A stretch of DNA of 64,000 nt from Betaproteobacteria bacterium. Its GTDB lineage: Bacteria > Pseudomonadota > Gammaproteobacteria > Burkholderiales > SG8-41. The position numbers were made by a program, and so were the translations under genes. Below, piece after piece: positions 11,938 through 51,459 of the stretch. Location: assembly GCA_032123035.1 (NCBI GenBank), contig JAQBFV010000189.1, positions 243-64,242 on the forward strand. Direction: 5' to 3'. Each line of letters opens with the position of its first letter. Positions within the stretch are counted from its first letter, which is position 1. The notes under the pieces were generated by a model. That model had not been told where the DNA came from. It did not search any database and saw only the letters and a list, made by a program, of their open reading frames with translations.

Positions 11938-12055
11938 AATGCGCAATGCTGAATGATAAATGGATCCGTACCTGCCGCGCCCGGTGTGCGGGCGTTGACC
12001 GCTTTTCGCTAAGCACTAAACATTGAACATTAAACATTGAACATTAAACATTGGT
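11938..12055. repeat. inverted heptad arrays AATGNNN x4 (11938-11965) and CATTRAA-type x6 (12014-12055)
   Basis: The AATG/CATT tetranucleotide recurs at an exact 7-nt period. The holC TAA stop (12044) lies inside the right array. The left array ends 11 nt before ATG 11927. Confidence 0.8.
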
Positions 12056-12472: not shown

Positions 12473-12537
12473 TTATCGTGAATCGTAATTCGTTAAGTGC
12501 CGCTGCGGGACCAGGATTCACCATTCACGATTTACGA
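12469..12537. repeat. inverted heptad arrays TCRTNNN x4 (12469-12496) and TTYACSA x3 (12517-12537)
   Basis: TCGT/ACGA recur at a 7-nt period. The pepA TGA (12525) is inside the right array and the holC ATG (12472) is inside the left array. Confidence 0.75.
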
Positions 12538-15182: not shown

Positions 15183-16252
15183 GGACGCTGCGGCGATACA
15201 TTGCGACCGAAATCTTCGTCGCGACCGCTCTGTTCACGGCCGCGCTGGTGATGCTGTTCGCGTTCTTCGACATGGTGGAGGAGGTAAAGGACCTCGGCCG
15301 CGGCACCTACACGATGCGACTGATCGCGGGTTACGTCTTGCTTTCGGCGCCGGGGCACATCTACGAACTCTTTCCGATCGCGGTCCTGATCGGCGCGCTT
15401 TTCGCGCTCGCGCAACTCGTTGCGGGATCCGAGTATACGGTCATGCGCACCGCCGGCGTATCAACCGCGCGTTTCGTTACCACGCTCGTGGGAATCGGCC
15501 TCGTTCTTGCCATGCTCACGTTCGCTTTCGGGGAATTCGTCGGCCCGCCCGCGGAGCAGTTCGCGCAGCGCCTTCGCTCGCAGGCCATTACCGGCGTGGT
15601 GGCGCAGGAGTTTCGCTCGGGCCTGTGGATCAAAGACGGCCGTAGTTTCATCAACGTGGTCGAAGTGCTTCCCGACACCAGTCTGCGTGGCGTGCGGATC
15701 TACGATTTCGACGAGCAATATCGGCTGCGCTCCATCAGTTTCGCACAACGGGGAACTTATCAAAGCGGCCGGCGCTGGATGCTCCACGACGTTGCGCGCA
15801 CGAACTTCGATGGCAAGGAAACCTCGGTGCAGAAACTGGCGCAGGCGAGCTGGCAGTCGGTTCTCGATCCCGATCTCATCAGCGTGCTCCTGGTGAAGCC
15901 TGAAAAGATGTCGGCTTCGAGCCTCTATTCGTACACGCAGCACCTCAAGGAAAACCGGCAGCGGGCGCTGCGTTATGAAATCGCGCTTTGGAACAAGCTG
16001 ACCTATCCCCTGGCCGTTGTGGTGATGGTCGTGCTCGCGCTGCCTTTTGCGTATTTTCGTGGCCGCCAGGCGGGCGTCGGCGCCAAAATCTTCGCCGGCA
16101 TCATGCTCGGCCTGGTGTTCCACTTCCTGAATCGCCTGTTCTCGTACCTTGGTCTGATCAACGATTGGCCAGCCTTTGCCAGCGCCATCGTGCCCATCGT
16201 GATTTTTTTCTCGGCGGCGGTGGGGATGATCTGGTGGCAGGAGCGAAGATAA
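15179..16252 (+). CDS. lptG: LPS export ABC transporter permease LptG
   Basis: MRTLRRYIATEIF N-terminus and a YjgP/YjgQ-type permease fold. It is translationally coupled to lptF. Confidence 0.88.
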   Translation: MRTLRRYIATEIFVATALFTAALVMLFAFFDMVEEVKDLGRGTYTMRLIAGYVLLSAPGHIYELFPIAVLIGALFALAQLVAGSEYTVMRTAGVSTARFVTTLVGIGLVLAMLTFAFGEFVGPPAEQFAQRLRSQAITGVVAQEFRSGLWIKDGRSFINVVEVLPDTSLRGVRIYDFDEQYRLRSISFAQRGTYQSGRRWMLHDVARTNFDGKETSVQKLAQASWQSVLDPDLISVLLVKPEKMSASSLYSYTQHLKENRQRALRYEIALWNKLTYPLAVVVMVVLALPFAYFRGRQAGVGAKIFAGIMLGLVFHFLNRLFSYLGLINDWPAFASAIVPIVIFFSAAVGMIWWQERR

Positions 16253-16352
16253 GGCGGAAGGCGGAAGGCGGAAGGCGAGGGGGACCCTACTTAAGAGGTT
16301 TTTCCTTCATCCTTCATCCTTCATCCTTCATCCTTCATCCTTCATCCTTGAT
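16251..16352. repeat. inverted heptad arrays AAGGCGG x4 (16251-16278) and CCTTCAT x6 plus CCTTGAT (16304-16352)
   Basis: Perfect tandem 7-mers. The lptG TAA abuts the first array. The TGA of the RDD gene (16335), and its last codons KDEG, are encoded by the second array. Confidence 0.9.
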
Positions 16353-16769
16353 GACTCGGGTGCCGGCGATCCGGTCGTGCAGGAACTGGTGATCCCGGTC
16401 CACGAGGGCCCATGCGAAGCCCGCGCCGAATGCGAGTAATCCAGCAAGAGCGAGGCAATAGCGCTGTACTGCCTGTCGCAGTGTAAGCATGCCGCCGTTG
16501 CGGTCCACCAGCCGAAGGCGCCAGGTTTTCATCGGCAGCGTCTGACCGCCGCGGCGCCATTGGCAGACGAAATACGCGCCCGCGAGGGCCACGAGATAGA
16601 GCTGGAGGAGCGGCCGCGCGACGACGTGTTCCACCGCTTGAGTCAAGGCGACGAATGGCGCTGCACCGAGCGCGAGGACTGCACACAGAACCAACGCTTC
16701 GTAGGCGAGGCTTACCAGGCGCCGCATGAGGCCTGCTGGCGGCGCGCTGTCATCATGCGCGGCAGACAT
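16335..16769 (-). CDS. RDD-family membrane protein
   Basis: Three TM segments and a C-terminal ...LVDRDHQFLHDRIAGTRVI tail typical of RDD proteins. It is the last gene of the ECF/DUF3619/DUF3106 block. Confidence 0.7.
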   Translation of the reverse strand: MSAAHDDSAPPAGLMRRLVSLAYEALVLCAVLALGAAPFVALTQAVEHVVARPLLQLYLVALAGAYFVCQWRRGGQTLPMKTWRLRLVDRNGGMLTLRQAVQRYCLALAGLLAFGAGFAWALVDRDHQFLHDRIAGTRVIKDEG

Positions 16770-21945: not shown

Positions 21946-22680
21946 GTGGGGAAAGGACGGGAAGATACGGTGAATATCGAGCAACAACGAGCTGACATAG
22001 CCACGCCGGAGGCCGCTGGCCAGAAGCCGCACCGCGCGAACGGCTACCCTCATCCCATCATTGCGCGTGAGGGCTGGCCCTTCATTGCGCTTTCCGTCAT
22101 CGTGGCCGTGCTGGTCCACGCGGCTGCGGGCCTGTGGTGGGCAGCGCCGCTGTGGCTCGTGGTCGTTTTGGTCCTTCAGTTCTTTCGCGACCCTCCACGC
22201 GCTGTTCCGCTCGAACCGAAGGCGGTCCTGTCACCGGCGGACGGGCGCATCGTCACGGTCGAACGCGCTCGCGACCCGTATCTCGAGCGCGACGCCCTGA
22301 AGATGAGCGTCTTCATGAACGTGTTCAACGCGCACTCCAACCGCAGCCCGGTGGACGGCGAGGTTCGCGAGGCGTGGTACCACACGGGTAAGTTCTTCAA
22401 CGCCGCGTTGTCCAAATCGTCGTTCGAGAACGAGCGTGCCGCGCTCTGGATCCGCACGCCGGGCGGTGCGGACGTGACGTGCGTGCAGATCGCGGGGCTG
22501 ATCGCGCGGCGCATCCTCTGCTATGCCCGGCCCGGCCAGCGCCTTGCGCGCGGCGAGCGCTACGGGTTCATCCGCTTCGGTTCCCGGGTCGATGTCTACC
22601 TGCCGTCGGGCGCGCGTCCGGTCGCGGCCGTTGGCGACAAGGTCTATGCCACCGAAAGCATTCTTGCGATATTTCCGTGA
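21946..22680 (+). CDS. psd: phosphatidylserine decarboxylase (short form)
   Basis: [13 protein letters not shown], and [14 protein letters not shown] containing the self-cleaving GS site. The start is GTG at 21946, or GTG at 21970. Confidence 0.85.
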
Positions 22681-22762
22681 ACGGTGAACAGTGAACGGTG
22701 AACAGAAACCGGGACGCCCACTGCCGATGACCCACCGTTTACCGTTTACCGGTTACCGTTGA
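22677..22762. repeat. inverted heptad arrays GTGAACR x4 (22677-22704) and CCGTTTA/CCGGTTA/CCGTTGA x4 (22735-22762)
   Basis: In the + RNA, 23 of 27 positions pair, including three G-U pairs. The psd TGA is in the first unit. The pssA GTG (22769) follows the last unit by 6 nt. Confidence 0.85.
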
Positions 22763-40032: not shown

Positions 40033-40253
40033 GATGCGACCCGATTCACGTGGCTGGGAGAGCCGCGCATTCTACCGAAAGAGCACGGGTTAGTCAAAGT
40101 AGGACACGGCCCCCGGGCCCGGAATGGTACTTTCGCATCAGGTAGTTAACCTGTTTCGGCGTCTGGTCACCGGGAGGCGCGGTACGCCGGAGCGCGGCGG
40201 GGACGCCGCGGGATTGCTGGTATGATCACGCTCTTTTTCGGCGGGTTTTAACC

Positions 40254-41272: not shown

Positions 41273-41349
<77 letters not shown>

Positions 41350-42003: not shown

Positions 42004-42225
42004 TTGGCGAAAATCATTCTGGTGGTTCTCGGCCTGCTGCTTGCCTACTGGCTTCTGAGGGGTTACCGGCGGCACATCGAACGCGGTAATGCGCCCTCTG
42101 CGGGGACGACCGAGGACATGGTCCGCTGCGAACTCTGTGGTGTGCATCTGCCGCGCAGCGAGAGCGTGGTTGCGCGAGGCAAGCATTACTGCTCGGTCGA
42201 GCACCGCGAGCAACAGCCCGGATGA
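42004..42225 (+). CDS. PP0621-type small membrane protein with a C-terminal Cys/His zinc-ribbon-like motif
   Basis: One TM (AKIILVVLGLLLAYWLL), then CELCGVHLPRSESV...HYCSVEH. TTG start. Its stop overlaps the kinase gene start. Confidence 0.6.
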   Translation: MAKIILVVLGLLLAYWLLRGYRRHIERGNAPSAGTTEDMVRCELCGVHLPRSESVVARGKHYCSVEHREQQPG

Positions 42226-43847
42226 TGTCAATGAGCCGAGCCCGTATGGAGCAGGCGGAGCGCCGGGCGCCGGGGGCGGCAAGCAGCACCGGCGCACACC
42301 CAGCGCCGTACTGGCGCTCACTCTTCCTGTTCAACGTCTACCGCCTGGTCGTTGGGCTGCTGCTATTACTCGGGGTCGGGCTATGGGGCGAGAACATCAT
42401 GTTCGGCTCACAGGACCGCACGCTCTTCCTGTTTGCCGACATCGCCTACATCGTGTTCAGCGTCGCGTGCTTCGTGACGATCGAGACGCGCCGGCACTTC
42501 AACCTGCAGCTCATGACGCAGGTGGTCGCCGACATCGTGTTCATCGCGCTTCTGATCGCCGCCAGCGGCGGAATTTCGAGCGGGCTGGGCCTGCTGCTGC
42601 TGACCACACTGGCCGGCGCAGGGCTTATCAGCCGGGGCCAGCTGACGCTGTTCTTCGCCGCGCTCGCCGGCATCGCAGTGTTGCTCGAACAAACGTACCA
42701 GGTGCTGGCCTACGACGCTCCGGTGGGGCAGTACGCGCAGGCCGGTCTTCTGTCCGCGGCCTATTTCGCCATCGCATGGCTTGCCCACGCGCTTGCCAAG
42801 CACACGCTGGCGAGCGAGGAGCTGGCGGCACGTCGCGAGGTCGACCTCGCGAATATGGAGCAGGTGAACGCGCTCGTCATCCGCGACATGCAGGACGGGG
42901 TGTTGGTAGTCGACGGGCGCGGCGTCATCCGGCAATCCAACACGCGCGCGGAGCAGCTGCTGGGACCGATCCGCCGCGATGCCGGGGAAGTGACGCTCGC
43001 CGGGTACGCCCCGGCACTGGGCGCTCGATTTGAACAATGGCGCAGCCAAAAGGGTGCGGACACGGCGGGTGTCAGGCCTTTCAGCAGCGCGGTCGGCGCG
43101 CGTTTCGTGCCGATCGGCAGGAGCCGCCAGATCGGAGCCGTCATCTTTCTCGAGGACCAGAGCCGGATCCAGTCGCAGGCACGCCAGTTGAAGCTCGCAG
43201 CGATGGGGCGGCTCACCGCCAACATCGCGCACGAGATTCGTAACCCCCTTGGGGCCATCAGCCACGCCGCCGAACTCCTGCGCGAGGAGCCGACGATCGA
43301 TGCGACCACCCAGCGCCTGATCACGATCATCAACGAGAACACGCGGCGCCTGGACGGCATGGTGAACAACGTGCTGCGGCTGAGCCGCGGCGACCAGGCG
43401 CATCGCGAGCGCTTCAAGGTAGTGAATTTTCTCAAGACGTTCGTCGGGGAGTTCACGCAGATTGAGCGCATTGACCCCGAGATATTCTGGCTCGAGCTCA
43501 CCGGAGACGCTGAGGTGCTGTTTGATCGCAGCCATCTGAACCAGGTCATGTGGAATCTGTGCCGCAACGCGTTGCGGCACAGCCGGCGGGAGCCGGAGAG
43601 CATCCGCATCCTCGTCGGCACGACGCACTCCGACACTGTTGTAAAATTGGACGTGGTCGATGATGGACCGAGCATCACTCCCGAAGTGCGTGCCCGTCTG
43701 TTCGAGCCTTTCTTTACGACCGCGGCCGCCGGAACCGGCCTCGGTCTGTATATTGCGCGAGAAGTGTGCGAGGCGAATGGCGCGACCCTGGACCACGTGG
43801 AGACGCCCTCGGGCACGCAGTTCAGTGTACTTTGTCGTGTGGCCTGA
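42222..43847 (+). CDS. PilS-like sensor histidine kinase (polytopic N-terminus, PAS-like linker, HisKA, HATPase)
   Basis: About six TM segments. H-box is AHEIRNPLGAI. The N-box region is NLCRNALRHS and the G-boxes are DDGPSI / GTGLGLYIARE. Confidence 0.85.
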   Translation: MMSMSRARMEQAERRAPGAASSTGAHPAPYWRSLFLFNVYRLVVGLLLLLGVGLWGENIMFGSQDRTLFLFADIAYIVFSVACFVTIETRRHFNLQLMTQVVADIVFIALLIAASGGISSGLGLLLLTTLAGAGLISRGQLTLFFAALAGIAVLLEQTYQVLAYDAPVGQYAQAGLLSAAYFAIAWLAHALAKHTLASEELAARREVDLANMEQVNALVIRDMQDGVLVVDGRGVIRQSNTRAEQLLGPIRRDAGEVTLAGYAPALGARFEQWRSQKGADTAGVRPFSSAVGARFVPIGRSRQIGAVIFLEDQSRIQSQARQLKLAAMGRLTANIAHEIRNPLGAISHAAELLREEPTIDATTQRLITIINENTRRLDGMVNNVLRLSRGDQAHRERFKVVNFLKTFVGEFTQIERIDPEIFWLELTGDAEVLFDRSHLNQVMWNLCRNALRHSRREPESIRILVGTTHSDTVVKLDVVDDGPSITPEVRARLFEPFFTTAAAGTGLGLYIAREVCEANGATLDHVETPSGTQFSVLCRVA

Positions 43848-43853
43848 CAAACC

Positions 43854-44051
43854 GGTGAATGGTGAATGGTGAATGGTGAATGGTGAATGGTGAATGGTGA
43901 ATGGTGAATGGAGAATGGTGAATGGTGAATGGAGAATGGTGAATGGTGAATGGTGAATGGTGCGTCGAAACAGCAGGGCTGCTTGAGAATGTCTTCGCGA
44001 GTTATGGGGTGCGAACCACCACTCACCACTCACGAATCACGACTCACGGCT
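43854..44051. repeat. largest heptad locus: 15 tandem units GGTGAAT (two are GGAGAAT) at 43854-43958 plus a degenerate 16th, a spacer of about 50 nt, then 5 inverted units CACCACT CACCACT CACGAAT CACGACT CACGGCT at 44017-44051
   Basis: Counted unit by unit. The pilS-like TGA lies 7 nt before the first unit, and the pilR-like ATG lies 8 nt after the last. Confidence 0.95.
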
Positions 44052-44058
44052 TCTTGAG

Positions 44059-45447
44059 ATGAGCGCAAACAGCCAAGTACTCGTCATCGACGACGAGGCC
44101 GACATCCGCGAGCTTCTGAGCCTCACGCTCGCGCGCATGGGGCTTGAGGCGCATTGCGCCGCGAATACGACAGAGGCGTACGAGTTGCTTGTAAAGAACA
44201 CGTACAACCTCTGCCTGACCGACATGCGGCTGGCCGACGGCGACGGACTCGCCGTCGTCGAATACGTCAGCAAGAATCATCCCGACCTGCCCGTTGCGGT
44301 CATTACCGCGCACGGCAGCACGGAGAACGCGGTTGCGGCCCTGAAGGCGGGTGCGTTCGATTACCTCGCGAAACCGGTATCCCTCAATCAGCTCCGCGCT
44401 CTCGTGCGCTCGGCATTGAAACTGCCCGCGCCGGGCGGGGACCAATCGCAAGAAGACGAGGCCCCGGCCCAGGGGCTGCTGATCGGCGAATCCGCGCAGA
44501 TGCGGGCGACGCGCGCGATGATCGAGCGGTTGGCGCGCACGCAAGCGCCGATTCACGTCACGGGCGAATCGGGCAGCGGCAAAGAGCTCGCCGCGCGGCT
44601 GATTCACACCAAAGGCCCGCGTAACGACGGGCCGTTTGTGGCGGTCAATTGCGGCGCAATACCGGAGAACCTGATGGAAAGCGAGTTCTTCGGTTACCGG
44701 AAAGGCGCTTTCACGGGCGCCACTGCTGACCGCGACGGCTTCTTCCAGGCCGCGAGTGGCGGCACGCTTTTCCTCGACGAGGTCGCCGACCTGCCGTTGC
44801 CCATGCAGGTGAAGCTCCTGCGGGCAATTCAGGAAAAAAAGGTCCGCAAGGTTGGCGCCACCGGCGAGGAAGCCGTGGATGTGCGCCTGATCAGCGCCAC
44901 GCACCGCAATCTTGGCGATGAGGTGAAAAGCAGTAATTTCCGGCAGGATCTCTATTACCGTCTCAACGTGATCGAATTGCGGATGCCGTCGCTGCGGGAG
45001 ATGCACGCGGACATACCGCTGCTCGCGGAGACGTTCTTCGCACGCCATGCCAGCGCTGGAAGCGGCCCGGTCCCGCGCCTCTCGGAGGAAGCGCTGAACC
45101 GGCTGCAGCACTATGATTTTCCCGGCAACGTACGCGAGCTGGAGAACGTGCTCGAGCGCGCGTTAGCCCTTGCCGCCGAACAGGAGATTCAGCCCGAGGA
45201 CTTGCAGCTCGGGCCGGTGCGCGCATCGGTAGCCACGGTTGTCGACGAAGAGGAGCCGGTCGCTGCCGCGGGCTTGCCGCTCCAGGAGCGGCTGGACTCG
45301 GTCGAGCGACAGGCGATACTCGACGCGCTTGCGCAGACGCGCTACAACCGCACCGCGGCGGCCAAAGTGCTCGGCATCACCTTCAGGGCGCTGCGCTATC
45401 GGATGGAGCGGCTCGGGATCACGGATGAGCTCGACTCGAAGGACTGA
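44059..45447 (+). CDS. sigma-54-dependent response regulator (PilR/NtrC family)
   Basis: REC domain (VLVIDDE...DMRLADGDG), AAA+ domain with GESGSGKE and GAFTGA, and a C-terminal Fis-type HTH. Confidence 0.92.
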   Translation: MSANSQVLVIDDEADIRELLSLTLARMGLEAHCAANTTEAYELLVKNTYNLCLTDMRLADGDGLAVVEYVSKNHPDLPVAVITAHGSTENAVAALKAGAFDYLAKPVSLNQLRALVRSALKLPAPGGDQSQEDEAPAQGLLIGESAQMRATRAMIERLARTQAPIHVTGESGSGKELAARLIHTKGPRNDGPFVAVNCGAIPENLMESEFFGYRKGAFTGATADRDGFFQAASGGTLFLDEVADLPLPMQVKLLRAIQEKKVRKVGATGEEAVDVRLISATHRNLGDEVKSSNFRQDLYYRLNVIELRMPSLREMHADIPLLAETFFARHASAGSGPVPRLSEEALNRLQHYDFPGNVRELENVLERALALAAEQEIQPEDLQLGPVRASVATVVDEEEPVAAAGLPLQERLDSVERQAILDALAQTRYNRTAAAKVLGITFRALRYRMERLGITDELDSKD

Positions 45448-51165: not shown

Positions 51166-51459
51166 ATGCCGAAAGCGAGGAAGAAGTCGGGCAAGAGGAA
51201 ATTGAAGAAAACGAAGAAACTGGCAAGAATGCGGCCGGCGAAACACAAAACAAGAAAACGCCCGGGCACACGCAAGCCGGCACGCAGGAAGGCGGTACGG
51301 CGCAAGAAGGCAGCACCGCGTAAAAAGATTGCGCGGCGCAGGAAAGCGGCACAGCGCAAAAAGACTGCGCGGCGCAAAGCGGCGGCAGTAGCCCCTGTGG
51401 CTCCGCGGCCGGTGGCAGTTCCGGGCGCCTGGCCCTTCCCGATGGGCAGCCGACCTTAG
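51166..51459 (+). CDS. small, extremely basic Lys/Arg/Ala/Pro-rich protein (histone-H1-like composition)
   Basis: AGGAGG lies 5 nt before the ATG. The sequence is MPKARKKSGKRKLKKTKKLARMRPAKHKTRKRPG...RRKKAAPRKKIARRRKAAQRKKTARRK. A strong intrinsic terminator lies 74 nt downstream. Confidence 0.6.
   Translation: MPKARKKSGKRKLKKTKKLARMRPAKHKTRKRPGTRKPARRKAVRRKKAAPRKKIARRRKAAQRKKTARRKAAAVAPVAPRPVAVPGAWPFPMGSRP

Follow-up and report, generated by a model that had tools for sequence, protein, structure and literature searches.

In an uncultured Burkholderiales bacterium of soil or water, the gene for a PilS-type sensor histidine kinase and that for a PilR-type sigma-54-dependent response regulator are separated by a spacer of 211 nt which, as read from the sequence, is filled by an array of heptanucleotide units (heptads) and an inverted partner array. 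The question raised by this arrangement is how such an element came to lie between the two genes, and whether the number of its units has any bearing on the amount of regulator produced. It was addressed within a 64-kb stretch of DNA that contains both genes (hereafter, the window), and by comparison with relatives, with other assemblies and with metagenome contigs.

The two genes were assigned on the basis of their Pfam domains. The kinase gene (positions 42222 to 43847, forward strand) codes for 6TM_PilS (E=9e-38), HisKA and HATPase_c domains and ends in a TGA stop codon at 43845-43847; the regulator gene (44059 to 45447, forward strand) codes for Response_reg, Sigma54_activat (E=3e-68), AAA_lid_14 and HTH_8 domains. 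The element fills the whole gap between them, starting 6 nt after the pilS stop codon (the intervening bases are CAAACC), and seven bases separate its far end from the ATG of pilR at 44059. Its 5' arm (43854 to 43958, forward strand), delimited by reading of the sequence and by TRF, consists of 15 in-phase heptads, 105 bp in all, in the order eight GGTGAAT, one GGAGAAT, two GGTGAAT, one GGAGAAT and three GGTGAAT, i.e., 13 GGTGAAT units and two GGAGAAT variants, the latter at units 9 and 12. The arm is free of C and carries TGA in all three forward frames. On the same strand it is followed by a decayed terminal unit, GGTGCGT (43959 to 43965), which is identical across all other assemblies, and then by a unique centre, or loop, of 51 nt (43966 to 44016), in which the predicted folds place a weak hairpin of 4-7 bp around 43969-43988. 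The 3' arm (44017 to 44051, forward strand) comprises five heterogeneous C-rich heptads, CACCACT (twice), CACGAAT, CACGACT and CACGGCT. The heptad composition, the decayed unit, the central spacer and the five CAC-heptads had all been described in the initial annotation, and were borne out base by base.

TRF reports 15.6 copies for the array, with 96% matches and a score of 204, the highest within the window, in agreement with its earlier description as the largest heptad locus. The longest run of period-7 identity is 51, whereas none of 100 Markov simulations produced a run longer than 11, and seven period-7 runs of at least 10 were observed in the window versus 0.16 expected. Period 7 alone is enriched; there is essentially nothing in the window at tandem periods of 4-6 and 8-12. 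A coding function for the array was rejected in view of the TGA codons in the three forward frames, the 541-aa ORF which passes through the array on the minus strand being antisense to pilS. The element is not an artefact of assembly, since both flanks and both ends of the array are reproduced by independent assemblies.

The distance between the stop codon of pilS and the start codon of pilR was compared among 78 relatives. The median is -4 nt (an ATGA overlap), and the largest positive gap is estimated at about 90 nt, the start-codon picks being approximate; in the closest relatives (L001-L007) the gap is about 0-24 nt. A heptad array between pilS and pilR is found in none of the 78. The nearest named relatives, as judged by PilR, are uncultured Burkholderiales and other Betaproteobacteria, with 60-77% identity. 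The impression that a spacer of 211 nt is unusual for such a pair is thus upheld. Because the gap is short or overlapping in the 78 relatives, and devoid of an array, the tight pilS-pilR spacing is the ancestral state and the 211-nt module is specific to this lineage; the ancestral genes were probably also translationally coupled. As the spacer is present in 0 of the 78 relatives, analyses of conservation and covariation are not applicable to it.

The inverted heptad element is not special to the pilSR operon. The window contains four inverted heptad pairs, including that of pilSR, and one lone array. Sister locus B (12474 to 12537, minus strand) reads, on the minus strand, CGTAAAT CGTGAAT GGTGAAT, a loop, and TTAACGA ATTACGA TTCACGA. 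The whole interval from the stop codon of a pepA-like gene, itself situated inside the first arm, to the start codon of a holC-like gene is taken up by this locus, which is identical in a second contig (L096). Sister locus C (16249 to 16353) is composed of four GGAAGGC units, a loop and seven TCCTTCA units, the second arm being polymorphic, and is located between convergent lptG-like and RDD-domain genes. Sister locus D (22675 to 22760, forward strand), with four units of GGTGAAC/AGTGAAC, a loop and four ACCGTTT units, fills the gap between psd and pssA, and the TGA stop codon of psd lies inside its first unit. The lone array (12017 to 12053) is a heptad/14-mer repeat, (TAAACAT TGAACAT) x2.6, located between convergent gene ends and lacking a partner arm.

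An identical PilR protein is encoded in seven other assemblies, namely an NCBI MAG contig (L081; GCA_032125385.1) and six short-read (Logan) assemblies. The MAG contig carries the same kinase gene, with a called product of 538 aa, and shares 99.8% identity with the window over 7.8 kb, but its array contains 11 units rather than 15, with the proviso that this allele stems from a MAG assembly, where a collapse of the array during assembly is in principle possible. One GGTGAAT of the first block and one GGAGAAT-GGTGAAT-GGTGAAT block are missing from it. The 3' arm is of the same length in both alleles, and exhibits a single A/G substitution in the MAG contig. The six short-read contigs with pilR all break inside the array, because the repeat exceeds the assembler k-mer, and provide no copy number; the pilSR array alleles on record are two, of 15 and 11 units. 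The right-hand end of the array is identical in all six short-read samples. The available assemblies indicate that the copy number is not invariant.

Variation of the same kind is evident at locus C, where the TCCTTCA array (16299-16353) has seven units in the window versus three in two contigs whose flanks are approximately 100% identical. This 3-unit allele is real, since k-mers of the two contigs reach from one flank to the other. Two heptad loci that are short and interrupted are invariant, locus B in one other assembly and locus D in seven. Change by whole units in the long pure arrays, together with fixity of the short impure ones, is the signature of replication slippage, which is thereby supported at both polymorphic loci, as is the earlier proposal of a recent slippage expansion. 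The unequal size of the two pilSR arms likewise suggests recent expansion of the 5' arm beside an older, decaying partner, because the former contains 13 identical units and the latter five heterogeneous ones.

Examination of other genomes and metagenomes revealed that heptad pairs are not confined to this organism. In unrelated betaproteobacterial MAGs (L009, L014 and L047), such pairs lie directly after the pilR stop codon, with units of a quite different kind, such as AGGAGTG/CCTCACG, AGTGCTG/CAGGACT and AGGGGCG/CGCCCCT. Arrays of at least four GGTGAAT units occur in at least 120 metagenome contigs, which range from 31 to 70% GC. Among the matches listed, a partner similar to (ATTCACC)3 is present no more than 200 nt downstream in 29-34 of the 96 arrays with enough sequence; among the same matches, an ATTCACC partner is present upstream in none of the 112 arrays for which upstream sequence is available. 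The same polarity, with the G-rich arm first, characterizes five of the six pairs in unbiased loci and, among the other heptad families, almost every skewed pair. By gene context, as counted with a conservative heuristic ORF caller, seven of the paired elements lie between convergent genes, three between co-directional ones and none between divergent ones. In 56 of the 78 cases, the gene located 5' of the G-rich arm points towards that arm. As a rule, the array starts between -19 and +12 nt from the stop codon of this gene, and often supplies the stop codon itself. In several metagenome examples (among them L203, L128, L212 and L218), canonical intrinsic terminators are found in or beside the loop.

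Stop codons were rejected as the general cause of the polarity, since GGAAGGC, AGGGGCG and GGGAATC are stop-free yet show the same polarity (for GGGAATC, see PMC4692102). A specificity for the GGTGAAT motif was also rejected: in viral contigs, arrays of at least three units numbered 36, versus 28, 21 and 2 for control heptads of the same composition. Because such control heptads form arrays at comparable rates, the class is defined by its period and architecture and not by its motif. By these sequence features, the pilSR element is one of the convergent heptamer pairs that make up a widespread class situated, in untranslated DNA, at the 3' ends of genes.

Several known repeat systems resemble this class in part. 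REP and BIME elements are enterobacterial imperfect palindromes, which can set the relative output of the flanking genes of an operon; in a given genome, REPs consist of one conserved sequence of 35-40 nt, and they are associated with RAYT transposases. Unlike REPs, the heptad loci of the window have only their period and architecture in common, and not one conserved sequence. They share with REP/BIME elements, and with intercistronic stem-loops (PMC9045158, PMC4423207), the form of an imperfect palindrome in 3' UTRs or between cistrons; intercistronic stem-loops, too, can set the relative output of the upstream and downstream genes.

In Xanthomonas, Rehm et al. (2015; PMC4692102) described approximately 70-75 convergent pairs of GGGAATC arrays per genome, at a mean distance of 28 nt from the ORF upstream, with a depletion between divergent genes. 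The length of these pairs varies between strains and species, they occur beside genes of all functional classes, and no regulatory role was identified for them (PMC4692102). Like the Xanthomonas GGGAATC and the Nostoc GGGGA(C/T)T repeats, the pilSR element consists of intergenic 7-nt arrays on opposite strands, which converge such that each strand has the G-rich arm on its 5' side. The heptad class described here also agrees with the Xanthomonas pairs in its location near the end of the preceding ORF (the pilSR copy, which occupies the entire gap, is not clearly nearer to pilS than to pilR), its depletion between divergent genes, its variability between strains and its occurrence beside housekeeping genes. 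The pilSR element differs from the Xanthomonas and Nostoc repeats in having GG instead of GGG, in its uncultured Burkholderiales host, in its position inside a two-component operon and in its arms of 15 versus 5 units.

The hmw1 locus of H. influenzae (NAR 2025; PMC12721329) provides the nearest functional precedent for tuning by copy number. There, a long hairpin in the 5' UTR, with a transcribed (ATCTTTC)n repeat as its left arm, is cut by RNase III; expression is inversely related to the repeat number, and changes in repeat number require both transcription and the hairpin (PMC12721329). As in the 5' UTR of hmw1A, the pilSR heptanucleotide repeat may be viewed as one arm of a long imperfect hairpin whose partner lies just upstream of a gene. 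In both cases the number of repeats varies and the structure saturates above a threshold repeat count, although for pilSR the saturation is a prediction only. Unlike pilSR, the repeat arm of hmw1 is pyrimidine-rich, its partner is a non-repetitive G-rich tract and the polarity is opposite; the hmw1 repeat is also located behind its own promoter, rather than between cistrons, and both the effect on expression and the RNase III cleavage were demonstrated experimentally.

Mrazek et al. (2007), as cited in PMC4679880 and PMC4692102, reported that in many bacteria, with Burkholderia, Xanthomonas and cyanobacteria among them, long repeats are most often built from heptanucleotide units, and proposed polymerase slippage to explain them; Burkholderia is one of the genera richest in such repeats. 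Like these SSRs, the STRR heptamers of cyanobacteria and the TAACTGA repeats of Beggiatoaceae, the heptad arrays described here have a period of 7 and are intergenic, multi-copy and strain-variable. The pilSR array is a tandem repeat beyond chance expectation, is non-coding, has counterparts at several loci and varies by whole units (given the MAG-derived 11-unit allele). The descriptions of Mrazek-type repeats concern direct arrays, however, and the TAACTGA repeats are found mainly just upstream of start codons, with one inverted case in 170 sets. Our literature searches found no paper on heptad palindromes in Burkholderiales or in pilSR.

The arms of the pilSR element, of 31-36 nt, can be aligned in some 11 alternative registers, with a complementarity of 77-81%. 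The best of these has Watson-Crick pairs at 26 of its 35 positions and a G-U pair at one, and four are A-C in the plus-strand RNA; the latter four become G-U pairs in the minus-strand RNA. This strand asymmetry had been noted initially, as A-C mismatches in one RNA and wobble pairs in the other, and both the count of the best register and the folds confirm it. Relative to shuffled controls, the fold of the minus strand is exceptional (z = -6.4) and that of the plus strand is not better (z = -1.1), because the A-C mismatches of the plus-strand RNA are G-U pairs in the minus-strand RNA. The computed energies of the arm duplex are approximately -33 kcal/mol in the mRNA sense and approximately -40 in the antisense, compared to -82 for a perfect complement.

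Partition-function folding (ViennaRNA) of a pilS'-spacer-pilR' segment with 0-25 units was used to assess the effect of copy number. The predicted probability of pairing between the 3' arm and the array is 0 with 0-1 units, 0.55 with three and 0.65-0.74 from four upward; it saturates at 4-5 units, with no trend beyond. Whatever the copy number, zero units included, most of the pilR start region is predicted to be paired, and its predicted state shows no graded change between 5 and 25 units. A scan of positions 43700-44200 detected neither a sigma-70 promoter nor an intrinsic terminator on either strand of the spacer, and no antisense promoter. The spacer contains no match to a sigma-54 -24/-12 site, and neither arm is followed by the T/U tract which, together with a GC-rich stem, characterizes an intrinsic terminator. 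At Rfam gathering thresholds, the sole match in the whole window is a tRNA-Pro, and there is none at the heptad element.

The explanation that we consider the more probable one, with some reserve, is that the pilSR copy is a hypermutable heptanucleotide repeat palindrome, the lineage-specific insertion of which uncoupled pilR from pilS. In this scheme pilR would still be transcribed by read-through from pilS, the simplest assumption because the spacer has no promoter or terminator. In the mRNA, the 3' arm would pair with any five of the 15 units, giving a long, mismatched, multi-register stem with the energy of about -33 kcal/mol computed for the sense strand. Such a stem would abolish the stop-start coupling of the two genes and bury the 40 nt that precede the pilR start codon, and PilR synthesis would then depend on melting of the stem or on processing of the RNase III type. 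The output of PilR would be lowered relative to that of PilS, and the two would be decoupled. The remaining 10 or so units are most likely a neutral surplus of slippage and not a graded dial, because only about five can pair at once. The hairpin in the mRNA may be weak or irrelevant, given the z-score of the plus strand, and a specific effect of the element on the translation of pilR is uncertain, because the start region is predicted to be paired even at zero units.

In the alternative put forward in the initial annotation, unit copy number would tune the kinase-to-regulator ratio, the repeat, once transcribed, folding with its partner arm into a hairpin in the 5' UTR of pilR. Such a rheostat has a precedent in hmw1, where expression is inversely proportional to the number of (ATCTTTC)n repeats (PMC12721329), and would agree with the difference in copy number between near-identical strains and with the proximity of the 3' arm to the pilR start. 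We nevertheless judge it unlikely, since neither the predicted pairing nor the predicted accessibility of the start is graded beyond 4-5 units. Furthermore, the sister elements lie beside housekeeping genes (psd-pssA, pepA-holC, lptG), elements of this class are mostly located between convergent genes, where there is no downstream gene to tune, the right-hand end of the array is the same in all six short-read samples, and the comparable repeats of Xanthomonas were not found to have a regulatory role (PMC4692102). Alternatively, the element could act as an attenuator or insulator, either as a terminator lacking a U-tract that reduces read-through from pilS to pilR, or as an antisense hairpin that blocks antisense transcription into pilS. 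The enrichment of paired elements between convergent genes and their absence between divergent ones would be expected from such a function, as would the canonical terminators in or next to the loop in some metagenome examples and the exceptional minus-strand fold, and intercistronic stem-loops are known to set operon stoichiometry elsewhere (PMC9045158, PMC4423207). We consider this alternative slightly more doubtful than the rheostat: the T/U tract is absent after either arm and a terminator-like site is found on neither strand of the spacer, and strong termination would silence pilR, for which no separate promoter was found. The antisense version is confronted with the lack of any antisense promoter in the scanned region. 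Moreover, sister elements occur upstream of pssA and holC, housekeeping genes the expression of which could hardly be lost.

A very unlikely alternative is that the array serves as a landing pad for ribosomes or for cold-shock-domain proteins, at about 7 nt each, the C-rich arm being an anti-SD mimic. The 3' tail of 16S rRNA contains UCACC, to which GGTGA is complementary, and the phasing is visible in the sequence, where each GGTGA precedes by 7 nt the AUG of a six-codon mini-ORF (MVNGEW-stop; GGTGAAT GGTGA ATG GTG AAT GGT GAA TGG TGA). Many 5'-arm heptads from elsewhere are also SD-like (AGGAGTG, GGAAGGC, AGGGGCG), and binding of heptamers by CspB is summarised in PMC4679880. The resemblance to an SD is confounded with G-richness, however, such that any G/A-rich heptad would look SD-like; in addition, heptads of the same composition display no motif specificity (the 36, 28, 21 and 2 matches given above), and most arrays follow the last gene of a transcription unit. 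The least likely of the explanations, in our estimation, is a mobile or templated element (MITE- or REP-like) or a G-quadruplex former. Related units (GGTGAAT, CGTGAAT, GGTGAAC) do recur at several loci of one genome, the location at the 3' ends of genes is REP-like, and G-rich heptads form G4 structures in Xanthomonas (PMC4692102). Yet the loci share neither flanks nor loops, lack terminal inverted repeats other than the heptads, and differ in their units between loci and between genomes. A target-site duplication of the MITE type was rejected, as the only candidate, the 7-nt CTTGAGA found at 43982 and again at 44053, is no more than chance would give. With regard to G4 formation, GGTGAAT provides only GG tracts, and thus at best a weak two-tetrad structure rather than one based on G3 tracts; the same applies to the sister units GGTGAAC and CGTGAAT. 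A far broader proposition would regard heptad palindromes as pan-bacterial, self-expanding 3'-UTR elements of transcription-dependent origin, with a polarity that is obligatory on both strands (a G-rich, C-free arm first and a C-rich arm second), and the pilSR copy as a captured, evolvable valve on PilR synthesis. The polarity might then be created by RNA-mediated repeat expansion, as in hmw1, or by selection that hides C-rich RNA from Rho. We hold this proposition to be improbable, on a par with the attenuator.

With insertion of a hypermutable palindrome into a formerly tight gene pair as the preferred reading, the extent of what is demonstrated at the pilSR locus itself is hypermutable non-coding DNA. 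The noteworthy aspect of the locus is the presence of a heptad pair inside a two-component operon, the class as such having already been noticed and being functionally unexplained. The convergent-heptamer architecture described in Xanthomonas is extended here to metagenome contigs of 31-70% GC, with a strict polarity and an adjacency to stop codons, and these two properties, which the class displays across phyla, are what is of most interest among the by-products of the analysis. A neglected class of bacterial repeats thus looks rule-governed and experimentally approachable. For the bacterium in question, PilS-PilR controls the expression of type IV pilin and the kinase-to-regulator ratio affects signalling, and it is plausible that, in this lineage, an insertion that breaks the translational coupling of pilS and pilR acts as a lever on the expression of pili.

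The heptad pairs have a fixed arm order. Among the matches listed, arrays of at least four GGTGAAT units were counted in metagenome contigs (L103-L222); 29-34 of 96 had an ATTCACC-type partner array within 200 nt downstream, and an upstream partner of this type accompanied none of 112. Among these matches, therefore, the G-rich arm always lies 5' on both strands, a polarity that is also obeyed by other heptad families. In one of the contigs (L110, 3100-3300), two different heptads are nested in a single palindrome, in the order (GGGGATT)n, (GGTGAAT)10, loop, ATTCACC-like units and (AATCCCC)n.

The only C-rich-first "pair" found is that of L016 (1465-1619), a relative whose PilR is 66% identical; there, three TCACCGC units lie on one side of the tRNA-Pro gene that precedes pilS, and three GGTGAAT units on the other. 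This apparent exception probably represents two independent arrays. The tRNA-Pro(CGG) gene of the window (41273-41349) has no adjoining heptads.

Both in the metagenome contigs and in the window, the upstream gene often has its stop codon within the heptad array. The array start precedes the stop, with recurring offsets of -5, -12 and -19 nt in L103-L222, so that the TGA of the array itself, which occurs in all three frames, ends the ORF. In the window, the stops of psd (22678-22680) and of the pepA-like gene (12525-12527) both lie inside the first arm of their heptad elements. In L203 (~805-1000), L128, L145, L212 and L218, GGTGAAT arrays have canonical intrinsic terminators in their loop or immediately 3' of the array. 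These consist of a GC stem and a T tract, and some are bidirectional, being flanked by A and T tracts. This arrangement suggests that heptad arrays grow within the interval between stop codon and terminator.

Throughout the array between pilS and pilR (43854-43958), an ATG follows each GGTGA by 7 nt, and GGTGA is complementary to UCACC, which belongs to the 3' tail of 16S rRNA. A mini-ORF of six codons (ATG GTG AAT GGT GAA TGG TGA; MVNGEW) starts at each such ATG, and ~13 overlapping copies of it extend across all three frames. In the loop, CTTGAGAATG (43982-43991) recurs as the pilR start context CTTGAGATG (44053-44061). The repeat might be what is left of the original junction, or a chance match, the expectation for such a 7-mer repeat being roughly one per 200 nt.

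Elsewhere in the window, an 18/36-nt tandem repeat (CGGCGCAAGAAGGCGGCACAGCGCAAAAAGACTGCG, 2.2 copies; 51297-51378) would, in one plus-strand frame, specify a tail rich in lysine and alanine, and no plus-strand ORF of at least 100 aa covers it. A 10-nt indel, CGGAGCGCGG (40188-40197), distinguishes the window from MAG contig L081, which is 99.8% identical to it; the indel is intergenic, upstream of a polyprenyl synthetase gene.

In a few other lineages, pilS and pilR are separated by 55-90 nt (L014, 3868-3959; L059; L046), and these spacers contain ordinary GC-rich hairpins without heptads. They were gained independently in these lineages, and uncoupling of pilS and pilR has therefore occurred more than once.
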